The notes below the pieces were generated by a model. That model had not been told where the DNA came from. It did no database searches and was given only the letters and a program-made list of their open reading frames with translations. Of a DNA stretch of 64,000 nucleotides, positions 23,822 to 63,760 are shown in pieces. The DNA lies in NCBI GenBank assembly GCA_964631145.1, contig CAZVXT010000001.1, positions 553,797-617,796 of the forward strand, written 5' to 3'. This stretch comes from an uncultured Candidatus Saccharibacteria bacterium. GTDB taxonomy: Bacteria > Patescibacteriota > Doudnabacteria > UBA920. The translations under genes were made by a program, and so were the position numbers. The number at the start of each line of letters is the position of its first letter. Within the stretch, counting starts at the first letter, position 1.

Positions 23822-24212
23822 TTAAGCAAGTCGAGCGATTACTTCCTATTTTAGGTCATGCGCGGTAAATCCACGAATATATTTAATACTAATTACTGCT
23901 CATAATCTAAAATAGGAAGAGGAAAGTCCGAACACTTAGTTTGAAAGATTCATATGAGCTTTTAAACAATGGTAACGGGTAACACCCGTCGAGGGCAACC
24001 TTAGAGATGCGAGCAGAGACGCTGTCTTCAGCAATGAAGCAGCTTCCCAAATTTATTTGGGAAGAGCCGCTATGGCAACACAGCGGGTGAAACGGCTAAA
24101 TTCTTATCAAAGTGCAATGCCAAATTTGGTAGGCAGCACGAGATTATTGGCAACAATAATCCTAGATAGATTATCGCTTAGAAACAAAATTCGGCTTACG
24201 AGCTTGCTTAGA
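23822..24212 (+). ncRNA. rnpB: RNase P RNA (bacterial)
   Basis: GAGGAAAGUCCGAAC (P4 5' strand) and ACAAAAUUCGGCUUACGAGC (P4 3' strand) conserved blocks; P1 helix taagcaagt/gcttgctta closes the ends. Confidence 0.85.
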
Positions 24213-24294
24213 GCTAAAATAAAAACACACGAAATTTTAACATGAGTTATTTTTTTCGCGTGTTTTTAATTTACAAAATTGTTTAGGAGGAAAA

Positions 24295-50524: not shown

Positions 50525-50710
50525 TTAAATACCTGAATAAATAACACCTTTAAATTCGTTATTAACGATTAAAGGGATTCCTTTAAAAGCTTTAACCTGT
50601 TGAGCCAATCTTTGCACAGTACAAGCATGTTTTCTACCTGTAGCACAGTGGGCACAAAGTCTGCTTAATTTATTTATAATATCTCGTTTTGTTAATTCTA
50701 ATTCTGACAT
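50525..50710 (-). CDS. Small Cys-containing protein co-transcribed downstream of lexA
   Basis: 12-nt spacing after lexA stop; CAHCATGRKHAC motif. Confidence 0.4.
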   Translation of the reverse strand: MSELELTKRDIINKLSRLCAHCATGRKHACTVQRLAQQVKAFKGIPLIVNNEFKGVIYSGI

Positions 50711-50722
50711 ATATTTCTAATA

Positions 50723-51334
50723 TTATTCTAAGTTTCTAATTACCCCTACAACCTTACCCTGGATCATCCACTCTTCTTTGGGGTAAATATTTTGATAATC
50801 CGGGTTTTCGGCTTTTAAGTAAGCCCGGTTTTTAATTTGCACGAACCTTTTAACTGTTGCTTCGTCGTGCAGCAAAGCAACTACGATATCATTATTTTTT
50901 GCTTCTTTTGTTGGTCTGACAATTACCAAATCTCCTTCATGGATGCCGGCATTAATCATACTGTCTCCCCTAACTCTCAATAAAAATACATCTCGCCTAC
51001 CTTTGATAAATGTTTGAGGTAAATTTATCCAGTCTTCTATAAACTCTTCTGCTAAATGAGGACTACCCGCTTGTACTGATCCCAAAATAGGAACCCGGAT
51101 TAAACCTTTTTCTAAGCTATCATTTAAACTATTAAGAACTTGAATACCTCTTGCTTTACCGCTGGTCTTTATATAGCCACCTTCTTCTAATGCAGATAAT
51201 AATTTCGCTACAGCATTTTTAGATTTTACTTCTAAATGATTTGCCATTTCTGATAACGATGGAGGTAAATTATAATCTCTAATTTGTGAGACTATAAATT
51301 TTAATAATTGTTTTTGTCTGTCTGTTAGGCTCAT
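50723..51334 (-). CDS. lexA: LexA repressor
   Basis: N-terminal wHTH, cleavage-site region VQAGSP, Ser-Lys dyad (VRGDSMINAGI…VKRF). Confidence 0.85.
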   Translation of the reverse strand: MSLTDRQKQLLKFIVSQIRDYNLPPSLSEMANHLEVKSKNAVAKLLSALEEGGYIKTSGKARGIQVLNSLNDSLEKGLIRVPILGSVQAGSPHLAEEFIEDWINLPQTFIKGRRDVFLLRVRGDSMINAGIHEGDLVIVRPTKEAKNNDIVVALLHDEATVKRFVQIKNRAYLKAENPDYQNIYPKEEWMIQGKVVGVIRNLE

Positions 51335-54407: not shown

Positions 54408-55001
54408 ATGAGAGAACAACCGCATACAGATATTACTGATGTAATGCTAGTTAATGGATATAAGACATTAAAAGCAATGCTATTATTTAATTATTTTACT
54501 GTTGGGCAAGTGTGCGAACATGCACAAGTTACCAGTGACTTTGTTAATCTTGTAATACAAGATTTTTCATTAGCTCAATATTTTCAACACTACGAAGAAA
54601 ATGATAATCCACTTGATTCGGAATATGTATTATCAAGTCAGGGCTGGAATGAAATATTTCAAATATCTGAAAATATGTATAACAACCAAATTTTAGTGCA
54701 TAGCACTTTAAATAGATTAGTAACTAAAGGCTTAATAAATGTTTATCCAGCCAACGATGAAACAATCATTGAAAGCCTAAAAATGACAGAAATTACTTTA
54801 GATGAATGTTTCAAATCTGATAAAAAATCGGTTAAAGAATTTAAATTAAGTGTTGCTAAATTTTATCTTGATTCATTAATCAATCATACAAAAGGTATTC
54901 AGGTTCTTGAACCTGAAAAACCAGATGTTCAAGAACTGGCAAAAAAAGTGAATCAGTGTATAAAAAAATTTCAAGAATATTCTGAAACATTAGCACAATA
55001 A
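54408..55001 (+). CDS. Hypothetical protein
   Basis: CAGGAGG RBS; 197 aa, no domain. Confidence 0.45.
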   Translation: MREQPHTDITDVMLVNGYKTLKAMLLFNYFTVGQVCEHAQVTSDFVNLVIQDFSLAQYFQHYEENDNPLDSEYVLSSQGWNEIFQISENMYNNQILVHSTLNRLVTKGLINVYPANDETIIESLKMTEITLDECFKSDKKSVKEFKLSVAKFYLDSLINHTKGIQVLEPEKPDVQELAKKVNQCIKKFQEYSETLAQ

Positions 55002-55003
55002 AA

Positions 55004-55035
55004 ATAGACCTCTACATGTAGAGGTCTTTTATTTT
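55004..55035. terminator. Bidirectional intrinsic terminator
   Basis: 22-nt perfect palindrome agacctctacatgtagaggtct plus T-run. Confidence 0.65.
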
Positions 55036-55448
55036 CAACATTCTGATAACATTGTCGAAATTTTTAGGTCTTTTATAATTCTATCAAAATCTATACCAAA
55101 AACAATTGAACTTATATCTTCCGCATCGCTTGTGCTTTTATTTTTAGCATACTCATAGCTAACTTTTTGTTTCCACCCACACGCACAATCCCATACAAAT
55201 TCGAAATCATAAATTGTTATGATTTTAAATTTATTACTTGGCAATAAAATATATTTATCAGCAAAAATAATTCTTTTTTCTCTAAAGTCATAAGGTAAAA
55301 ACAAGGCTTCTTCTTCAGTCAAAAAATCAGCGTTCTCTGCCATATAAATTTTTCCGCAAACACACTCTGCATCTTCTACCATAGAAGACAAAAAATCAAA
55401 CTCTTCCAAAACTTCTTTAATTTCTTCAAATGTTAAATTTTGAATCAT
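55035..55448 (-). CDS. Hypothetical protein
   Basis: 137-aa ORF; Cys pairs CVCGK…CACGW. Confidence 0.4.
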   Translation of the reverse strand: MIQNLTFEEIKEVLEEFDFLSSMVEDAECVCGKIYMAENADFLTEEEALFLPYDFREKRIIFADKYILLPSNKFKIITIYDFEFVWDCACGWKQKVSYEYAKNKSTSDAEDISSIVFGIDFDRIIKDLKISTMLSEC

Positions 55449-55564
55449 TATTAATATCCCCCGTTTTATATTTTGAATAAATAATACAGCAACTGTGCAG
55501 CCATGTAAAGCTTGACGCTAGACATAGTTAAACCTATAATACTTAAAAAATACGGAGGAGATTT

Positions 55565-56155
55565 ATGAACATAGAGAAGGTTTTTACATATGATACTTTG
55601 CAAGTTGATTTATATACGGTTCTACATATATCTCTAGGTATGAAAAAAGTTTCAACAGGATTGATATATGAGATAACCACTATACATATGCCAAGAATTG
55701 CCGGACTACTTAATCCGTTTCAAGATTATTTTGAGCCCAATTTTTGCTTTAATGAATTTAGGTTTATTGAAAGAACTATCACAAATCCACGAGTGATGGA
55801 AATAGCTCGAAATAACATATGGAATGATCACATATCACGTCCTAGAATTTTTAGACGTTTGATTAGGCAAAAGTTATGGATGAGCTTAGAGCAAAGTGAA
55901 GACAGATATAAGCAAGCGTGCTTAGCATTAAATGAACTAATTTCAAAAGTAGAAAATTCTGAAAAAAGCCAGCAATTAATAGCTCAAAATATTTTCTCAC
56001 TAATAAGCAGTAAAATTAAATTCCTAGAAGACATTGAAGCCGAGTTTAAAATTCTCTACAAAGATGCCATGCAAAACCCTCAATCTAAGCATTATAAAGA
56101 CTGGTGTAATAAAGTAATTTTTCAAAGAAAAATAAATATAATTACACCATTTTAG
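55565..56155 (+). CDS. Hypothetical protein
   Basis: CGGAGGAG RBS; 196 aa. Confidence 0.45.
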   Translation: MNIEKVFTYDTLQVDLYTVLHISLGMKKVSTGLIYEITTIHMPRIAGLLNPFQDYFEPNFCFNEFRFIERTITNPRVMEIARNNIWNDHISRPRIFRRLIRQKLWMSLEQSEDRYKQACLALNELISKVENSEKSQQLIAQNIFSLISSKIKFLEDIEAEFKILYKDAMQNPQSKHYKDWCNKVIFQRKINIITPF

Positions 56156-57398: not shown

Positions 57399-57430
57399 AG
57401 CAAAAGATTTATTAGGGGGTATCTATACAT

Positions 57431-57763
57431 ATGGAAGGTGAAATACTGCTCCAACCTGAAGGCTCTGGGGTGCAATTAACTACTAGAAATTTATTTTTTA
57501 GTGCAGACTACATAATTAAAGGTTTTTGCTTTGAAAACCAAGACCATCACATGATTCTATGCTTTTTAAGCAAACTTGCTGGGAGAAAAGCTATAAAAAA
57601 ATTATTAGAACATGGGGTGATTAACGAATCTTTTGCTATAAAATTTGAAGAATATATTAAAAATTCAAATATTTCTGAATCTGAAAATGTTTATGATGAT
57701 ATACCATTTTATTGGGATAAAAAAAATTTAGTCCCCGAACAAAGATCAGAGTCTGTGCATTAA
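57431..57763 (+). CDS. Hypothetical protein
   Basis: GGGGG RBS; 110 aa. Confidence 0.45.
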   Translation: MEGEILLQPEGSGVQLTTRNLFFSADYIIKGFCFENQDHHMILCFLSKLAGRKAIKKLLEHGVINESFAIKFEEYIKNSNISESENVYDDIPFYWDKKNLVPEQRSESVH

Positions 57764-57774
57764 AATTATAAAAA

Positions 57775-57811
57775 TTTAAAAGCGACGAAATTTCGTCGCT
57801 TTATTTTTATA
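57775..57811. terminator. Bidirectional intrinsic terminator
   Basis: agcgacg-aaattt-cgtcgct hairpin plus T-run. Confidence 0.65.
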
Positions 57812-57815
57812 ACAA

Positions 57816-58295
57816 TTATTTACCCACCCAAGGATTACCATCATCGACACCACTATAAACACCAGAGGCTTTATTATTACGATCTATAACTTCTTGCTTT
57901 GCTTGCTTTGCGATTCTTTCCATATCCTCATAATCTAAAACTGGAAAATTACTCATTTTTTGAGCTGCCTCCCAAGCCAGGTTGAAGCCAACTTTCCAAT
58001 CTGGATTGTTTTGAGTAAAGCTCTCTTCTTTTAAAGCTTCTATTAAATCTTCTTTTACTCGCTCTATTCTATCTTCGGATACCTCATTATGATTTTGAGA
58101 AAGTGAGGATCTAAGTGCTTCGGAGTTTATAGCTAAAGCTGGGTTGATATCTTTTGCTGCTTGAGCGTAGTTATCTACTGCTTCTTTAGACCAAGCCTCG
58201 GACATTTCCTTTTCTTCTACTGTTCCCTCTTGACTCATTTGGTGCAAGTCTTCTATATCTGATCTTGCCCCATTAAATTTATCGAATTCACTCAT
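57816..58295 (-). CDS. Acidic hypothetical protein
   Basis: 159 aa, strongly acidic, helical. Confidence 0.45.
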   Translation of the reverse strand: MSEFDKFNGARSDIEDLHQMSQEGTVEEKEMSEAWSKEAVDNYAQAAKDINPALAINSEALRSSLSQNHNEVSEDRIERVKEDLIEALKEESFTQNNPDWKVGFNLAWEAAQKMSNFPVLDYEDMERIAKQAKQEVIDRNNKASGVYSGVDDGNPWVGK

Positions 58296-58394
58296 AATTT
58301 ATATATTAATTACTTTTATTATAACTTTTTTATAAAAATGGTTTTCCACAGCTTAATTAAAAAGAGCAATATTCCTATTGCTCTATTTTGGACT

Positions 58395-58679
58395 TCAAAG
58401 ATCAAGGCTTTGAAAGTCATGATTTGGTTTTGTGCTTTGCCACAAGATTGTGATCAAAGCCGCAACGCTCAACAACCCGAAAAGGATCAAAGTCAAAACT
58501 CCGGCTTGAGTTGCAAATTCTTCACCAAATCTTTGCATTGCGAGCAATGTCATAATGTCTTGAATTGGCGATGGAATTGTTTGTCCAGGACCAGCAATGA
58601 TGTGCTGAATCCATGCCACCAGAAAATTGGCAGCAAACAATGCAATGCTCAAAATTTTCCAATCAAAAATTTCTTTCAT
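58395..58679 (-). CDS. Hypothetical membrane protein
   Basis: AGGAGG RBS (rc of cctcct at 58686); two TM helices; preferred over overlapping + ORF. Confidence 0.4.
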   Translation of the reverse strand: MKEIFDWKILSIALFAANFLVAWIQHIIAGPGQTIPSPIQDIMTLLAMQRFGEEFATQAGVLTLILFGLLSVAALITILWQSTKPNHDFQSLDL

Positions 58680-58749
58680 TTTAACCTCCTATTTAAAAAT
58701 TTTAATACGATAATAAAGTTTAGGCAAATAAATTAACAGGTAATTTAAT

Positions 58750-58914
58750 TTACCATCTCTGACGACCAACTTTTCGTTGTTCGCGAAATTTTAATGTTTT
58801 ATTTTTATCATGAACCCGTCGCTCTCGACGCTTTTGCCTAGATTCGTTTTTAGATGCAACTGCATCAAAATTTGGATCCAAAGCTTTTATTTCGTTAGAG
58901 ACAGATAGCATCAT
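58750..58914 (-). CDS. rpsU: 30S ribosomal protein S21-like
   Basis: MLSVSNEIKALDPNFDAVASK…RQKRRERR…KTLKFREQRKVGRQRW aligns with S21 pattern; longer ORF to 58962 would abut the tRNA-like element. Confidence 0.35.
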   Translation of the reverse strand: MMLSVSNEIKALDPNFDAVASKNESRQKRRERRVHDKNKTLKFREQRKVGRQRW

Positions 58915-58965
58915 ATGTTCGCACCAGCCCTTGCTGATTAAGCTTTTTCTTATTTTTTTCATAAG

Positions 58966-59035
58966 GCACTAACAGGAATTGAACCTGTTATTCTAGATTA
59001 CTAGTCTAGCATATGTCCATTTGTACTTTAGCGCC
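58966..59035 (-). tRNA. tRNA-like element with AGU anticodon (possible tRNA-Thr(AGU) or pseudo-tRNA)
   Basis: Acceptor GGCGCTA/TAGTGCC, 3-bp D-stem, perfect anticodon stem CTAGA/TCTAG with loop CUAGUAA, T-arm ACAGG-TTCAATT-CCTGT; no CCA encoded. Confidence 0.35.
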
Positions 59036-59192
59036 AATATTCAATTTTGGAAGCACTACTTTTTGTAATACTCTCAAAAAAGAAGTGGTGTTGTATGCAG
59101 TTCTAAAATCTTTTCTCTAATTTTAGATCCATACCGGCACCACAGCCGAACTTGTTTTGGGACTTACACCCCCGGATCAGTTTCCGGATGCA

Positions 59193-59546
59193 TTACCAAC
59201 ATCTCGTATAAAACACAGTGTTGGTTGCCGTTGGTTGCTCGAAAGACATTTTGCTTTCCCACCACGAACCAAACGCCTTGCAGTAGCCAAGTTTTTTGAG
59301 ACGCTTATCACGCTCAGCAACTACAGCTTCTGATCTACGCTTGGCAGTGGTATAAAGCTTACCTTCCGAGTCCGTGCACTCACCGTTAGAATCAAATCTA
59401 CCAGGTGCAGGGCAATCTTCAACTCCGCTGCGAAACTCCTCCCACAAATCAGCCACTGCTTTTTGGGCAGCAAAATGATTTGCAAAAGTATTTCCAACGA
59501 CAACAATAGCGGCAAAAACAACGATAACAGCAATAATAGTTTTCAT
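59193..59546 (-). CDS. Secreted Cys-rich hypothetical protein
   Basis: GGAGG RBS; signal peptide MKTIIAVIVVFAAIVVVGNTFA; six Cys; locally elevated G+C. Confidence 0.45.
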   Translation of the reverse strand: MKTIIAVIVVFAAIVVVGNTFANHFAAQKAVADLWEEFRSGVEDCPAPGRFDSNGECTDSEGKLYTTAKRRSEAVVAERDKRLKKLGYCKAFGSWWESKMSFEQPTATNTVFYTRCW

Positions 59547-59586
59547 AATTTTATTTTCCTCTTTTTTATTTTTTATTTTAGACCAA

Positions 59587-59742
59587 TGGAGATGGCGGGA
59601 ATCGAACCCGCATCCAAGAATTTTAATACCTATTTATGCAGATTCAACTAAGTTTGCAGTCCTTAGTAACGCAAGTCCTTCTCGTGGTTGGTTATCCTTA
59701 CTTTCTACCCGGCTAAAATCCCTGTCGAAGCCTGTCACCCCC
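59587..59742 (-). ncRNA. ssrA: tmRNA-like gene (ssrA), unusually short (~156 nt), CCA not encoded
   Basis: 5' GGGGGUGACAGGCUUCGACAGGGAUUU matches the tmRNA 5' consensus; 3' GCGGGUUCGAUUCCCGCCAUCUCCA forms T-arm plus acceptor; G3-U70 Ala identity pair present; candidate tag ORF GCA AAC UUA GUU GAA UCU GCA UAA. Confidence 0.5.
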
Positions 59743-59789
59743 TTACCAATTTCCGAAATTTCTTTATAAAGCAATTCCGAAAAAAAGTG

Positions 59790-59822
59790 CGAAGCTAAAC
59801 AGCTTCGCAAGATATTAACCGT
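59790..59822 (-). terminator. Intrinsic terminator downstream of HicB-like gene
   Basis: On minus strand gcgaagc-uguuua-gcuucgc followed by U7. Confidence 0.6.
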
Positions 59823-59826
59823 GATG

Positions 59827-60525
59827 TTAATACCTGATTCTAAACTCTGCCCTTAAACCTAAGATTTGATTGAGATAATCTAAAGGTTCTACATCTACTG
59901 GCTTATCATAGACCAGCACAAACTGATCACTACGAACCATGGATGCTGGCTTGTTTTTTACCACAGCCATCATCCCTTTTTGCCTCTGACGACAAACACT
60001 ACAATCCCCATAACATCCATAAACTACAGTCATCACCATGTCATCAAGCACAGCAATCTGTCTAGAATTTTCCCATCCTGGGACAGTGATTAACCCAATC
60101 ACATTCCAGTCTTTTGAGTATGCCGCTGTTTGCAAGGAAATTTGCTTATCCCAAGCCTTCCTTTCAAGTTTTAGATTATACATTTCCCGTTTAAAATTAA
60201 TATTACGGACCAAAGATTGCAATGCCAGTTCTTCACTTCTACCAATTCCTCTACTTTGTTCAAACTCCAAACACTTTGCTAAATAAATTTTTCCCGAAGG
60301 CAAATCGTGAGTATTATAAGTAACAGTTAATTCTTCTGCACTATAAAGTCTATCTGGCATATCAGCAAAATATTCAGCATCTATAAATTCTTCAACTTTA
60401 TTTTGTAAATCTTTTTGAGCGTCTTCAATATTTTTACCTAATCCAAAAACGGTTGGAAACTGTTTGCATGTAGAGATAAATCCTTCTGAGGTTTTGGTGT
60501 TTCTTACGGTTCAAATTGTTTTCAT
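59827..60525 (-). pseudogene. HicB-like N-terminal domain protein interrupted by an in-frame TGA at codon 5 (ORF track reports only 59827..60360)
   Basis: GGAGG RBS 5 nt before ATG 60523-60525; reading MKTI*TVRNTKTSEGFISTCKQFPTVFGLGKNIEDAQKDLQNKVEEFIDAEYFAD continues in frame into MPDRLY…; the 55 codons between are stop-free and resemble a HicB/UPF0150 fold. Confidence 0.45.
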
Positions 60526-60581
60526 AATGCCTCCAAAAATTTGTAATTTTTATTTTTCCAAACAAACGAATATTCACTTGC
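60519..60581 (-). repeat. Promoter/5'-leader repeat copy A (shared with 61873..61940)
   Basis: 35-nt identical core ttttatttttccaaacaaacgaatattcacttgct plus shared ttcataat…cctcca SD region. Confidence 0.6.
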
Positions 60582-60620
60582 TGGGAAAAATTCCCAAAGT
60601 CACGTGCTTTGGGTTAATGA

Positions 60621-60962
60621 CTAATCATCATAGTCATAGTTTAAGTAAGTGTAATTTTCATCGCAATCCGAGACAGGAAAACCAAAATCTCTTAACTTTT
60701 GCTCATCCATTATTGGATAATCAAAAAGTTCAGCAATTGGAAATATCCTTGGGGTTACTACGTCCATCTCTTGCACATGTAATAACTCTTGATGAGAAGT
60801 GCTGGTGCAATAACAACCACACTTTTCTGTATCATCCCAAGTTAGATTATCAGCAACAAAGCTAACAATCGACTTTCTAATAGATTCCAGACTTTCATCT
60901 GGAGCTTCGACAGTATGATAGTTATTTTGACCATACTCCTTTAATACAATCATTAGTTTCAT
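60621..60962 (-). CDS. Hypothetical protein
   Basis: AGGAGGG RBS before ATG at 60962 (MKLMIVLKEYGQ…); preferred over overlapping + ORF. Confidence 0.4.
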   Translation of the reverse strand: MKLMIVLKEYGQNNYHTVEAPDESLESIRKSIVSFVADNLTWDDTEKCGCYCTSTSHQELLHVQEMDVVTPRIFPIAELFDYPIMDEQKLRDFGFPVSDCDENYTYLNYDYDD

Positions 60963-61122
60963 AGCCCTCCTATATAACTTTTTTCTGTTACTTGCTAATT
61001 CGCCGGTCAGCATATAAATTAGTCAAGTGTCCTAAAAGTTTTTTCCCTCTTTTTTAATCGACGTAAACACATCGACTAAAAAAGAGGTGCGAAGTTTTTT
61101 AGGCTTCGCATAAGTTTTCAAG

Positions 61123-61332
61123 TTAATAGAATTTCTTATCTTTAAAAGTGTTTATACTGCCGCCCCAATCGTCCTTTAACCATCCAATATACATACCGAG
61201 CTTAATAGCATCTGCTGTAGATATTGAATCAGGGACTTGGATATGATAACCACCTTTATTAAACGAAATATCTCCTTTAACTTTTAATGTTAAATCTACG
61301 AGTCGGGATAATGCCCAGTCAGGATTAAACAT
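61123..61332 (-). CDS. Hypothetical small protein (69 aa)
   Basis: GGAGGT RBS before MFNPDWALSRL…; intrinsic terminator downstream. Confidence 0.4.
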   Translation of the reverse strand: MFNPDWALSRLVDLTLKVKGDISFNKGGYHIQVPDSISTADAIKLGMYIGWLKDDWGGSINTFKDKKFY

Positions 61333-61469
61333 AATACCTCCACTACTTTCTTCTGTCTCTCGCTTACACACCAAAAGGCATTATGCAAGTCGAGTGTCCG
61401 GAAAGAACCTAATTACAAGTATAATTACTTGGACCATAGTTTAGTTTTGGTATTATGAACACCTTTTGT

Positions 61470-61661
61470 TTACTTATTGATTACTAATATAAACAACTCT
61501 CGTAAACAATATACTGCTACACCAACCATTAAAATCATAAATAAAGTTAGCATAATCATTTGTCCAGTATCGTGATTTGCTGCGGCTTCTTTGGAAGCTG
61601 TAGCTACAGCCACACACCCAACAGTTGAAATAATACACCCCAATATATAAAAAATCTTCAT
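61470..61661 (-). CDS. Small hydrophobic membrane peptide (63 aa)
   Basis: GAGGAGG RBS before MKIFYILGCIISTVGCVAVA…; two TM segments. Confidence 0.4.
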   Translation of the reverse strand: MKIFYILGCIISTVGCVAVATASKEAAANHDTGQMIMLTLFMILMVGVAVYCLRELFILVINK

Positions 61662-61746
61662 AAATCCTCCTCGATATAATCCCAATTTTTAAAAGACTAA
61701 ACAGTTAATCTTCTAAAAAAGAGGTGCAATATTAATTGCACAGGTG

Positions 61747-61878
61747 TTATAACACACGAATAAATCGTGCACACTCAGCGGCAATTGCCGGACCATAAGT
61801 GTTATATAAATGAGCAAAGCTCAATGAACCTACTACAATAAGCATGGCTCCCAATAATACTTCTACAATAAATTTCAT
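61747..61878 (-). CDS. Small hydrophobic peptide (43 aa) driven by repeat copy B
   Basis: GGAGG RBS before MKFIVEVLLGAMLIVVGSLSFAHLYNTYGPAIAAECARFIRVL; stem-loop terminator follows. Confidence 0.4.
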   Translation of the reverse strand: MKFIVEVLLGAMLIVVGSLSFAHLYNTYGPAIAAECARFIRVL

Positions 61879-61940
61879 AATTTCCTCCAGATTTTTTATT
61901 TAAAATTTTATTTTTCCAAACAAACGAATATTCACTTGCT
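61873..61940 (-). repeat. Promoter/5'-leader repeat copy B
   Basis: Same 35-nt core as 60547..60581 plus SD region. Confidence 0.6.
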
Positions 61941-62232
61941 TAGAAAAATGGCAAATCAAGTTTGCCGAGGTTTTTTGTCCCATTTACAATAGCGTGGAAC
62001 AAGTCTTTGGATAGTTCGACCATGCGCGCGGTAGCGAACAGTCCTAGTATCACATTTCGGACAACCGCAGTGTTCGTCTTCCAACTTGGCTGCGGCAACT
62101 TTAGGTGCGACATAAATGGTTATTTTTATGTTCATCATTTAAAGTATATTGCGGTCTCGCCTTGGTTTATAAACTATCGGCTAAATAATTTTTCTTTCCC
62201 CAAGATCCCCGCACTGTTTTTTTGAAACTTGC

Positions 62233-62478
62233 TTAGGCAGCAGCAACGGTTACTTTCTTCGCAGGTTTTCGTTTGAACTCTTGTCGCTTTTTATGAAGCT
62301 TCATAAGAGAATCATAACGATCACCCGCTCGATACCGCCGCGCGTCGGCATGGCTAACGATATTAGCTGCAGTTGCCGCGTTTAATTGAGCATCGATGCC
62401 AGCAAACTTCAATTTTGGTCTATGTTGAACCATATAAGCTAATTCAACTTCAACCAATTTTTCGATTTTGGTTATCAT
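62233..62478 (-). CDS. Hypothetical basic protein (81 aa)
   Basis: AGGAGG RBS; locally elevated G+C; 5'-UTR hairpin ccacc/ggtgg precedes the RBS. Confidence 0.4.
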   Translation of the reverse strand: MITKIEKLVEVELAYMVQHRPKLKFAGIDAQLNAATAANIVSHADARRYRAGDRYDSLMKLHKKRQEFKRKPAKKVTVAAA

Positions 62479-63059
62479 TATCTTTTCCTCCTATATAACC
62501 CACCAGCCACGGTGGTTTTATTTATTTTTATTTTCTTTTTCGAGATGACGAATTTACACTCATCCCCTCAAAAAAGGAGCCCAACTTAAAGTTGAGCATA
62601 AGTATGTGTTAGATGCTTTCCACAGCACCCTGCTGTAATTGGAGTTACAGCTTTCGCTTCCACTGCAGAGGAACCGCATTTTGTCTGACCTTCTCAGAAG
62701 ATGTCTTGCATAGACAATCCCAGCATCAATTTTTATCAAAATGATGACTTACACAAAATAGATTTTGACTAGACCTAGGAGTATATATATAGTTCATTAC
62801 CTTAGGGCAATAAAAGGCATTCTAGTATGCCACCTGACTTCCGAAGAACGAAGTCATTGGTCTAAGATATATACTTAATCAGGGTTATTTTGCAAAATTG
62901 CAAAAGTGACACGCAACCCTCCTAAATATTTTTAGCGTTCTATTTTAGATCGCCTATTTTAATTTTCAAATTTTGAAAACTAGAATAGACGGATGATTTA
63001 AGTTTGAAGTTTAAATCACCTCAATAAAATTTGTCTTGCGACATAAATTACCTCCTTTG

Positions 63060-63760
63060 ATAAAAATTTCCTATACGCTAGGATTACTTAGCGCCGGCGC
63101 GACCCAAGCCGGTAATCTGCTGCCCCTCCCATGGGGGTCGATATGGTCTTTATCGACATAGTCTTTTGGGTCTTGGGTAGACCGTTAGGTTTGCAGCCCG
63201 CTTTCGCGAGGAGCTTGTCCCCTAACCGGGCAAGCTCTTGGCGGCTTAAGCCGCTCAAGTCTGTCATATTTTTCAATTTTTTCTGTTCAGCTAAGTTTGT
63301 AACTCAACTGAACAGTTTGGGTGCTGAGCTGGTGGCTCATTGTTAACACCGCAGTCTGAAAATTTTCTTGTCACCTATTGTAACGAACTTTTTACAAAGC
63401 TTTGTCCAATAGGATCTCGCCATCACCGTTCTTGCGCGAGACTTTACGGATTTACGGTTGACCCAGATCTTGGGTTGTCAGTTACTCGTTTTCAGACGAA
63501 CCGGCAAAAATAAAGATTACTTTATCCCCGCCGGCCCGTCTGCAAAGTTGTAAGCTGGTGCTTAAACTAGCAAGCTAGTCTAAACATCTCTACAGTCGGG
63601 CGGACATATTAAAAAGCTGTAATCTTTGAATTAGATAACAACCTTTACAAGACCAACTCGCTGTGTGGCAAGTATTTATATGATTATTAGCCCCGTAATA
63701 GAGGCACTCCTGCCTACCAGCGATGTTCCTTTAATTTCTTAATGGAAACTAGCCGTAAAA
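63060..63760. other. ORF-free, G+C-enriched, stem-loop-dense region (candidate large structured RNA of unknown class)
   Basis: No ORF above 71 aa in any frame over ~1.5 kb (62480-64000); many perfect 5-8 bp hairpins such as CTGTTCAG…CTGAACAG, GAGCTTG…CAAGCTC, GCGGCttaaGCCGC, TCTCGC…GCGAGA. Confidence 0.25.

Follow-up and report, generated by a model that had tools for sequence, protein, structure and literature searches.

A 156-nt tmRNA-like gene lacking the pseudoknot ring in a strain-specific insert of a Doudnabacteria chromosome

The DNA analysed here, referred to as the window, is a 64-kb stretch of a contig (CAZVXT010000001.1) from an uncultured bacterium of the Doudnabacteria, a lineage of the Patescibacteria or candidate phyla radiation (CPR). 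Its minus strand carries at 59587-59742 a 156-nt gene that resembles the gene for transfer-messenger RNA (tmRNA, encoded by ssrA), a molecule that in its standard one-piece form is ~360 nt long. The original prediction for this locus, made from the sequence, had placed a tmRNA 5′ end and a tmRNA T-arm and acceptor ~156 nt apart, with a G3-U70 alanine identity pair and no room for the usual four pseudoknots. Both ends and the G3-U70 pair were read directly in the minus strand, and the coordinates of the span proved exact in the sequence and in an alignment to the Rfam tmRNA model (RF00023). The parts of the gene are listed below, with RNA position 1 corresponding to window position 59742 on the minus strand.

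59587-59742 (-): miniature tmRNA-like gene, 156 nt as the inferred mature form, CCA not encoded, matched by RF00023
59736-59742 (-): 5′ strand of the acceptor stem, GGGGGUG (RNA 1-7), including G3 of the G3-U pair; pairs with 59588-59594
59711-59724 (-): 5′ strand of helix 2 (P2), RNA 19-32; from RF00023 consensus pairs and from minimum free energy (MFE) and constrained folds
59631-59710 (-): interior loop of 80 nt, RNA 33-112; weakly structured as judged by folding, pseudoknot enumeration and shuffles
59634-59657 (-): candidate tag frame GCA AAC UUA GUU GAA UCU GCA UAA (ANLVESA*), RNA 86-109; the sole open interior frame
59615-59630 (-): 3′ strand of helix 2, RNA 113-128; from the same consensus pairs and the same MFE and constrained folds
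59587-59611 (-): T-arm GCGGG-UUCGAUU-CCCGC (RNA 132-148), acceptor 3′ strand CAUCUCC (149-155) and A156, followed by UUG; from the RF00023 alignment

The tRNA-like domain, helix 2 and the interior

Read from 59742 to 59584, the minus strand is GGGGGUGACAGGCUUCGACAGGGAUUUUAGCC...GGUAUUAAAAUUCUUGGAUGCGGGUUCGAUUCCCGCCAUCUCCA followed by UUG. RF00023 matched 59584-59742(-) with 60.9 bits, above the gathering score of 47 (E = 2.4e-21 for the whole window), so that the covariance-model check proposed with the original prediction was positive. The ARAGORN check proposed alongside it was not: this program reported four tRNAs in the window, missed the miniature gene and called no tmRNA at all. The RF00023 alignment spans model positions 1-374, with 88 unaligned nt standing in for 300 model positions, and because the interior thus contributes nothing to the alignment, the score comes wholly from the tRNA-like domain (TLD). 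For comparison, RF00023 gives 63 bits to an 82-nt TLD-only gene of a viral contig.

The acceptor stem comprises 7 bp between GGGGGUG (1-7) and CAUCUCC (149-155), namely G1-C, G2-C, G3-U, G4-C, G5-U, U6-A and G7-C, of which G3-U153 and G5-U151 are wobbles, and the discriminator is A156 (window 59587). The D-region, GACAGGCUUCGAC, is of the conserved type GA..GGCUUCGAC (consensus GA..GGnUUCGAC). The domain therefore has all of the features that define a tmRNA TLD, that is, a 7-bp acceptor with G3-U70, A73, a T-loop of the GUUCGAnUC type, the D-region and no anticodon arm. Both strands of P1, P2 and the T-arm are still complementary, and the TLD has 51% G+C compared with ~33% for the genome. No second match to the 3′ end of the RNA was found anywhere in the 64-kb window. 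We conclude that the locus holds a tmRNA-derived gene with an intact TLD, matched far beyond chance.

Helix 2 consists of 11 bp (19-29/118-128) with a 3-bp extension (30-32/113-115), which gives a length of 11-14 bp around an interior of 80-88 nt. The interior folds into just one 6-bp hairpin (76-81/91-96). Helix H5 and pseudoknots PK2 to PK4 are absent, and the 3 nt that separate the stop codon of the candidate tag frame from the 3′ strand of helix 2 leave no room for them, as the original prediction had argued. Upstream of the putative resume codon, neither RF00023, which leaves the interior unaligned, nor an enumeration of H-type pseudoknots gave a credible PK1; the enumeration yielded a single weak candidate (-6.5 kcal/mol), which overlapped the tag frame. 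We conclude that the RNA has no pseudoknot ring and probably no pseudoknot whatever.

Only one of the three reading frames is open across the interior, and it ends at UAA (107-109) just before helix 2. It contains the predicted tag frame, which was described at the outset as lacking the usual end; indeed, the candidate tag ends in ..SA, without the ..AA or ..LAA of a degron. An in-frame GCG lies further upstream at 59670-59672 (RNA 71), and a start there would give ALLRTANLVESA*. In E. coli tmRNA the resume codon is at position 90, compared with RNA 86 for the GCA here, and the E. coli tag opens with the codons GCA AAC, equal to the first two of the candidate frame. When a tag-like open reading frame (ORF) was defined as a GCN start, at least 6 codons and GCN as the last sense codon before a stop, such an ORF occurred in 2.9% of dinucleotide shuffles of the interior. 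On these sequence features, (A)ANLVESA is a plausible candidate tag.

The interior also contains the word AAGGA three times (59660-59699 (-), RNA 44-83), twice as UAAGGA. This word is complementary to the anti-Shine-Dalgarno end of 16S rRNA. Three copies of AAGGA itself arose in 0.14% of shuffles and three copies of any 5-mer in 8.9%, so that the repetition is significant for this word but not, post hoc, for any 5-mer.

The strain-specific insert and its genes

The window DNA is cellular. It encodes SecA, SecD/F, a Mur ligase, RF1 with PrmC, S2, EF-Ts, L25, L10, L7/L12 and RNase P RNA; homologues of its L10 protein at 69-77% identity carry the label Candidatus Doudnabacteria, and an identical L10 protein is also found on Logan contigs. 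The locus is contained in the DNA runs SRR12712853 and SRR12712864. The miniature tmRNA gene lies near L10 among small ORFs, and the features that surround it are as follows.

57400-63630 (-): strain-specific insert of small orphan ORFs with both RNA genes; ~6.3 kb, ends approximate, defined by synteny
59827-60360 (-): 177-aa orphan ORF directly upstream of the miniature tmRNA gene; a 97-aa ORF of a distant contig (L034) is a homologue of its C-terminal half
59788-59809 (-): intrinsic terminator of the 177-aa ORF, 45 nt before the RNA 5′ end
59193-59546 (-): 117-aa ORF directly downstream; its sole real homologue is in L034
58964-59035 (-): accessory tRNA-like gene, anticodon loop CUAGUAA (AGU, Thr-type); Rfam tRNA, 48.2 bits

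The insert is located between a conserved TrmB gene with its adjoining non-coding block and the L10 leader. For comparison we used eight related loci obtained through L10 homologues of 77-81% identity (L005, L007-L009, L029-L033), all of which share a ~670-aa protein, LexA and a DUF11/CLIPPER protein downstream of L10-L12. Upstream of the L10 leader, four loci (L005, L007, L008/L009) carry a pyrophosphatase or H+-PPase, then MGMT and then DUF218, and none of these genes was found by tblastn in the window or in contig L010, which extends the window by ~5.5 kb to ~69.5 kb. The combined order in the window and L010 is a 473-aa ORF, a HATPase_c_3 protein, a 320-aa ORF, TrmB, a gene-poor block, the ~6.3-kb insert and the L10 leader. 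In the closest relative (L031/L032), MGMT, DUF218 and TrmB are followed by ~1.25 kb without genes, a pair of unrelated small ORFs and L10; its TrmB (L032) has 52% amino acid identity to that of the window and L010, and the first ~230 nt of the gene-poor block are 70% identical to L032. Neither a tmRNA nor a tRNA was found at the syntenic position in any of the eight related loci by Rfam, pattern search or ARAGORN. Because the related loci lack both genes there, we conclude that the miniature tmRNA gene belongs to a strain-specific insert of a hypervariable slot.

The ORFs of the insert belong to no Pfam, PHROG or PADLOC family. Among 5.8 billion (5.8e9) proteins the 177-aa ORF has zero homologues and a 159-aa ORF has a single one (90% identical, on a 532-bp contig), and for the 117-aa ORF a single real homologue turned up in 1.84 billion cluster representatives.

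Judged from the sequences, the missing CCA in both RNA genes is a second, independent sign of foreign origin. The miniature tmRNA gene ends in ..CUCCA followed by UUG, and CCA is likewise not encoded by the tRNA(AGU) gene, which lies ~550 nt downstream of it, has 39% GC and two D-stem pairs flagged as non-standard, and was missed by ARAGORN at 58964-59035; the ATG of the next ORF follows 2 nt past the tRNA 3′ end. In comparison, CCA is encoded by each of the four ordinary tRNA genes that the window carries (Trp, Thr-UGU, Tyr and Thr-GGU; 49-59% GC). The two host genes tRNA-Thr(UGU) and tRNA-Thr(GGU), at 39-40 kb, mean that threonine tRNAs are already encoded elsewhere in the window.

No consensus promoter was found between the terminator at 59788-59809 and the 5′ end of the miniature tmRNA gene, and the next ORF begins 38 nt past its 3′ end. 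The RNA would have to be processed from an operon transcript, as phage tRNAs are.

These results bear on the leading option of the original prediction, in which the organism has no tmRNA but this one. The gene would then be a housekeeping ssrA of the one-piece type, radically reduced and free of pseudoknots, in a CPR bacterium with a reduced genome, and would carry out ordinary trans-translation and add the short tag (A)ANLVESA. Several observations are consistent with this idea: the TLD is intact, with a tag-like frame placed at the canonical distance from the 5′ end; the genome is a small one, and reduction affects many genes in CPR bacteria; the 64-kb window contains no other tmRNA; E. coli can dispense with PK2-4 and accepts a substitute for PK1 (PMC3968760); and ~22% of Patescibacteria genomes have no tmRNA call (PMC11915505). 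However, the gene is missing from the syntenic locus of the eight relatives and stands among orphan genes with an aberrant tRNA nearby, and its CCA is not encoded, unlike that of the host tRNA genes. Furthermore, no similar short gene was found among GTDB species representatives, a collection expected to include Doudnabacteria, apart from two contigs of another kind, and standard tmRNAs predominate in the phylum (PMC11915505). We consider this option quite improbable.

The original prediction had also raised the possibility of a tmRNA-like element left by an island insertion. An island does seem to be involved, but not through the mechanism suggested: both gene ends are present and no 3′ fragment is duplicated in the window, which points to cargo and not to an att remnant. 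A by-product of island integration into ssrA, whether an att-site fragment or a rearranged target, would agree with the location of the gene in a variable region and with the frequent use of tmRNA genes as island integration sites (PMC11915505). However, fragments that derive from such integration lack one gene end (PMC4131195), whereas here both ends are present and pair together. Within the window there is no second copy of the tmRNA's 3′ end or of that of the neighbouring tRNA and no att-type repeat of either, no integrase was found, and the relatives have no ssrA target at the locus. An origin of this kind is very improbable.

Other features of the region were recorded in their own right. 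Inside the insert is a 47-nt direct repeat (60545-60591 and 61903-61949, 94% identical), each copy of which lies, on the minus strand, just upstream of a ribosome binding site and ATG; independent Logan assemblies break there, and the repeat may be a repeated promoter or operator or a recombination site. A consensus promoter, TTGACA-N17-TATAAT (63827->63794), precedes ~450-500 nt that contain no convincing ORF and are located between the variable insert and the TrmB-family regulator. This stretch (window ~63827-63300 (-), continuing into L010 5690-6200) is homologous to L032 ~2380-2900, is conserved block-wise with 74% column identity to this relative and matches no Rfam family at E<=1, and is a candidate for an undescribed non-coding RNA or long leader of Doudnabacteria. 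The L10-L12 operon is flanked by another small variable slot, at 54408-56155, where three ORFs (197, 137 and 196 aa) without a Pfam family lie between L7/L12 and a conserved ~677-aa gene; the same interval has no called gene in L005 and other genes in, for example, L007 and L029. The class A RNase P RNA at 23823-24214 (+) scores 112 bits (threshold 100), has large insertions that stay unaligned, among them ~57 extra nt in its first hairpin, as well as poorly matched helices, and is of a divergent CPR type.

A distant syntenic locus and short tmRNA-like genes elsewhere

Both genes that flank the miniature tmRNA gene have homologues, in the same order, on L034, a contig of 1,092 bp, with an amino acid identity of 38% (E = 2e-16) between the upstream ORF of L034 and the C-terminal half of the 177-aa protein, and of 42% (E = 5e-22) between the 117-aa protein and its counterpart. 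Between the two genes (~560-640), L034 has a terminator and then ..AAAUGGGGAUCAAUCUCCACCAUGU.., with no tRNA-like domain. This stretch has AUCUCCA in common with the acceptor 3′ strand of the miniature tmRNA, a 7-mer match in 134 nt with p ~0.01, and on this sequence evidence the 18-22 nt concerned are a probable vestige of a tmRNA-like gene. One reading is a collapsed acceptor helix with ACCA behind it, and an equally possible one is a degenerate T-arm; the stretch is either a vestige or an extreme miniature. The stretch could fold into a 5-bp helix with a G3-U pair, closed by a UCAA loop and followed by ACCA; minimal AlaRS 'tetraloop' substrates used in vitro resemble such a helix with its loop and ACCA.

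If the L034 stretch is a vestige, then the gene was present in the common ancestor of both elements and has been almost wholly lost in L034. On the same assumption, the TLD of the window gene has stayed perfect, in a genome of 33% GC, while the neighbouring proteins have diverged to ~40% identity, which speaks for selection having acted on the TLD in this lineage.

L034 also bears on a further alternative, that the window gene is a functionless, decaying relic of an element-borne or host-captured tmRNA whose mRNA and pseudoknot part was lost by internal deletion. With no more than an 18-22-nt vestige left between its copies of the flanking genes, L034 would represent a reductive trend, and the G5-U wobble and short helix 2 of the window RNA fit decay, as do the interior that does not align to the tmRNA model, a whole-RNA fold no better than that of shuffled sequences, the lack of a detected promoter and the lack of an RNA homologue in GTDB species representatives, JGI metagenomes and IMG/VR. 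On the other hand, every defining position of the TLD is intact, its G+C content stands well above that of the genome, and P1, P2 and the T-arm have kept their complementarity. With flanking genes at ~40% identity, an unselected RNA of that age would be unrecognisable, assuming that the L034 vestige is homologous, and a deletion of exactly the region enclosed by helix 2 that left a tag-like frame would be unlikely by chance. We regard decay, which corresponds to the degenerate copy of the original prediction, as rather unlikely.

Other short tmRNA-like genes were sought with strict tmRNA 5′ and 3′ patterns separated by a 95-126-nt gap, which matched 2 contigs among GTDB species representatives (both in Anaerolineae bins), 16 in JGI metagenomes and 1 in IMG/VR. 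A form of ~145-165 nt recurred among these, with a TLD, helix 2, an interior of 73-88 nt and RF00023 scores of 64-72 bits (L002, L003 = L020/L022/L024, L011/L015, L012, L021). At L003/L024 the gene stands first in an array of ~30 tRNAs, and the contig also carries phage-family proteins (phrog_11528, E = 3.5e-85; an exonuclease). Two contigs of the L002/L003 group, which lie in Anaerolineae metagenome-assembled genomes of GTDB, are probably misbinned or integrated phage. The L012 gene is on a 242-kb contig with phrog_23947 (E = 1e-134), and that of L021 is followed by three tRNAs. A match of 108 bits, L013, holds an NN gap and is probably a broken standard tmRNA gene. TLD-only genes of 60-85 nt directly followed by a tRNA were found in L004/L016/L026, L014/L017, L018, L023 and L025, and in IMG/VR (L035-L066) the same strict pattern matched 27 contigs at TLD-only spacing and a further 6 at intermediate spacing. 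We conclude that miniature tmRNA genes recur on viral or phage-like contigs, often beside tRNA genes. No published description of the ~145-165-nt forms was found, and of the phage TLD-only class DS6A alone is named in the literature that we found. A blastn search of the window RNA against INPHARED returned only generic T-arm and acceptor matches to phage tmRNAs.

The individual genes differ in what their interiors hold. Those at L003 5953-6101(-) (= L020/L022/L024) and L002 327-475 are 149 nt long and score 63.8 bits, and L002 and L003 have no tag frame that is conserved between them. The genes at L011 1502-1665(-), L015 219-382(-), L012 2376-2537 and L021 1268-1411 score 65-72 bits. A frame of 23-26 codons is open in both L011 and L015, with 5 synonymous and 6 non-synonymous changes and no clear coding signature, and L021 holds GCC UAA, a possible 1-codon tag. 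Two cultured phages also deserve mention. In Stenotrophomonas phage vB_SmaM_Bhz51 (L027, OR797040.1 67979-68352) the annotated 374-nt 'ssrA' overlaps a tRNA-Thr; only ~90 nt of the feature precede its acceptor 3′ end, so that the annotation looks over-extended or permuted. Lactococcus phage phiL47 (L028, ~50544-50890) carries an unannotated tmRNA of standard length, with the tag ANTQLAVA*, between two tRNA genes.

Proposed function and comparison with known systems

Documented miniaturised tmRNAs are few. The tmRNA database of Nawrocki, Petrov and Williams (2025) holds 97,179 sequences, of which 9 are classed as 'standard, no CDS' (CDS, coding sequence), the members being phage DS6A, two plastid genes of ~65 bp, Nasuia and the Patescibacteria genus 9FT-COMBO-53-11; for Patescibacteria as a whole it records 5252 standard tmRNA genes in 6765 genomes and 3 'NoCDS' instances (PMC11915505). 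The miniaturised forms may serve for rescue without tagging or for sabotage of host rescue. Hudson et al. (2014, PMC4131195) characterised the DS6A tmRNA as 'little more than the TLD', and strong inhibition of tmRNA by such a molecule has been reported, perhaps through SmpB titration (Mao et al. 2009, cited in PMC4131195). Tagging in E. coli requires PK1, which a small hairpin can replace, and does not require PK2-4, which serve folding and maturation (review PMC3968760). On this basis, a tmRNA that has a coding loop but no pseudoknots is mechanistically conceivable; in the literature we found no natural tmRNA as short as this one with a coding loop and without pseudoknots.

We favour, with moderate confidence, the interpretation that the gene is an accessory, horizontally acquired miniature tmRNA that, together with an accessory tRNA, is cargo of a strain-specific island in a Doudnabacteria chromosome, the island being phage-like or another mobile or hypervariable element. 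Its accessory status is indicated by the absence of the insert in relatives, the orphan ORFs, the lack of an encoded CCA and the rule of standard tmRNAs in Patescibacteria. Structurally, the miniature tmRNA extends the DS6A-type TLD-only class by a variant that is longer and possibly coding, and from its sequence it is probably charged with alanine and bound by SmpB.

In the mechanism that we propose, RNase P and 3′ processing would cut the miniature tmRNA from a polycistronic transcript of the island, the CCA-adding enzyme of the host would supply its CCA, and AlaRS would charge it with alanine through G3-U70 and A73. The TLD would then bind SmpB and EF-Tu, and the RNA would enter, or compete for, host trans-translation. 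Two outcomes can be envisaged, which we rank about equally. In the first, the ribosome would resume at GCA (RNA 86) and append (A)ANLVESA, and because this tag has no ..LAA degron, ribosomes would be rescued without the normal proteolysis signal. In the second, the miniature tmRNA would be mainly a competitor that titrates SmpB and stalled ribosomes, as has been proposed for DS6A. The most specific version, in which a mobile element in a CPR bacterium redirects host ribosome rescue by means of a working, CDS-bearing minimal tmRNA (alanylated, SmpB-bound and with an 8-codon frame for the non-degron tag (A)ANLVESA), is an unlikely one in our view.

A number of observations weigh against a functional, element-borne tmRNA. 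The MFE fold of the whole RNA is not more stable than those of dinucleotide shuffles (z = -0.48), helix 2 is far shorter than that of working tmRNAs, and translation of the tag would need helix 2 to be unwound because the stop codon is only 3 nt away. The missing promoter upstream of the gene counts in the same direction, and the probable vestige in L034 would show that loss of the gene is tolerated in this element family, which also fits decay. The strict patterns retrieved no homologue of the miniature tmRNA itself from GTDB species representatives, JGI metagenomes and IMG/VR. As regards the element, no integrase, phage structural or replication gene or att repeat was found in the 12 kb examined (window and L010), the island has no match to cultured phages (blastn, INPHARED) or to IMG/VR, and neither the exact island tRNA nor the 47-nt repeat occurs in IMG/VR. 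Because no mobile-element hallmark was seen, the term island is founded on synteny and orphan content only. With respect to the host, Rfam found no second tmRNA within the 64-kb window, the portion of the genome examined being the window and ~5.5 kb more, and tblastn found no smpB in the window, a weak negative given that the query, E. coli SmpB, is distant.

If the accessory miniature tmRNA is functional, it would define a natural minimum for tmRNA and would point to manipulation of trans-translation by mobile elements in ultra-small bacteria. The locus adds an intermediate form to those documented, with a TLD, a short helix 2 and a pseudoknot-free loop that bears a tag-like frame, as apparent accessory cargo in a CPR genome. 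Were it a working minimal tmRNA, a TLD, a 14-bp helix 2 and an unstructured loop would suffice for trans-translation in nature in a molecule much shorter than typical one-piece forms, and ribosomes would be recycled while their products would not be marked for proteolysis. There is also a practical consequence: because ARAGORN misses the gene and Rfam reports a full-length tmRNA match, annotation could wrongly record the miniature tmRNA as the ssrA of the organism.

Of the known systems, the TLD-only tmRNA of DS6A is similar in that the TLD and its alanine acceptor features are kept and the pseudoknot ring is lost. The DS6A type resides on a phage or mobile element, and the TLD-only genes inspected in IMG/VR adjoin tRNA genes; the window RNA lies in an orphan-gene insert with an aberrant tRNA ~550 nt away. 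Compared with DS6A, the window RNA has about twice the length, and it keeps helix 2 together with a loop of 80 nt that contains a tag-like frame; it is found in a CPR chromosome with no recognisable phage genes. The DS6A type is expected to bind SmpB and to compete with host tmRNA, and by analogy we predict the same for the window RNA.

With standard tmRNAs of the RF00023 family, the window RNA shares the TLD, helix 2, the position of the putative resume codon, the GCA AAC start of the candidate frame with its terminal alanine and UAA stop, and a score above the Rfam threshold. It differs from them in that PK1, H5, PK2, PK3 and PK4 are missing, helix 2 is limited to 11-14 bp, the tag does not end in ..AA and the locus is not conserved. 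The reduced plastid and endosymbiont tmRNAs and the bacterial forms that may lack a CDS (Nasuia; 9FT-COMBO-53-11; PMC11915505) resemble it in the loss of pseudoknots, in some cases with no recognisable tag, and one such group belongs to the same phylum. However, theirs is the sole ssrA of a reduced genome, whereas the window gene appears to be accessory; moreover, 9FT-COMBO-53-11 would be a different lineage, set apart here by its name only, which implies ~53% GC compared with 33% in this genome. The ~145-165-nt metagenomic forms (L003/L020/L022/L024, L002, L011/L015, L012 and L021) have the same combination of TLD, helix 2 and short interior as the window RNA, but their interiors are not homologous to it, most of them encode CCA, and their GC contents and hosts differ.

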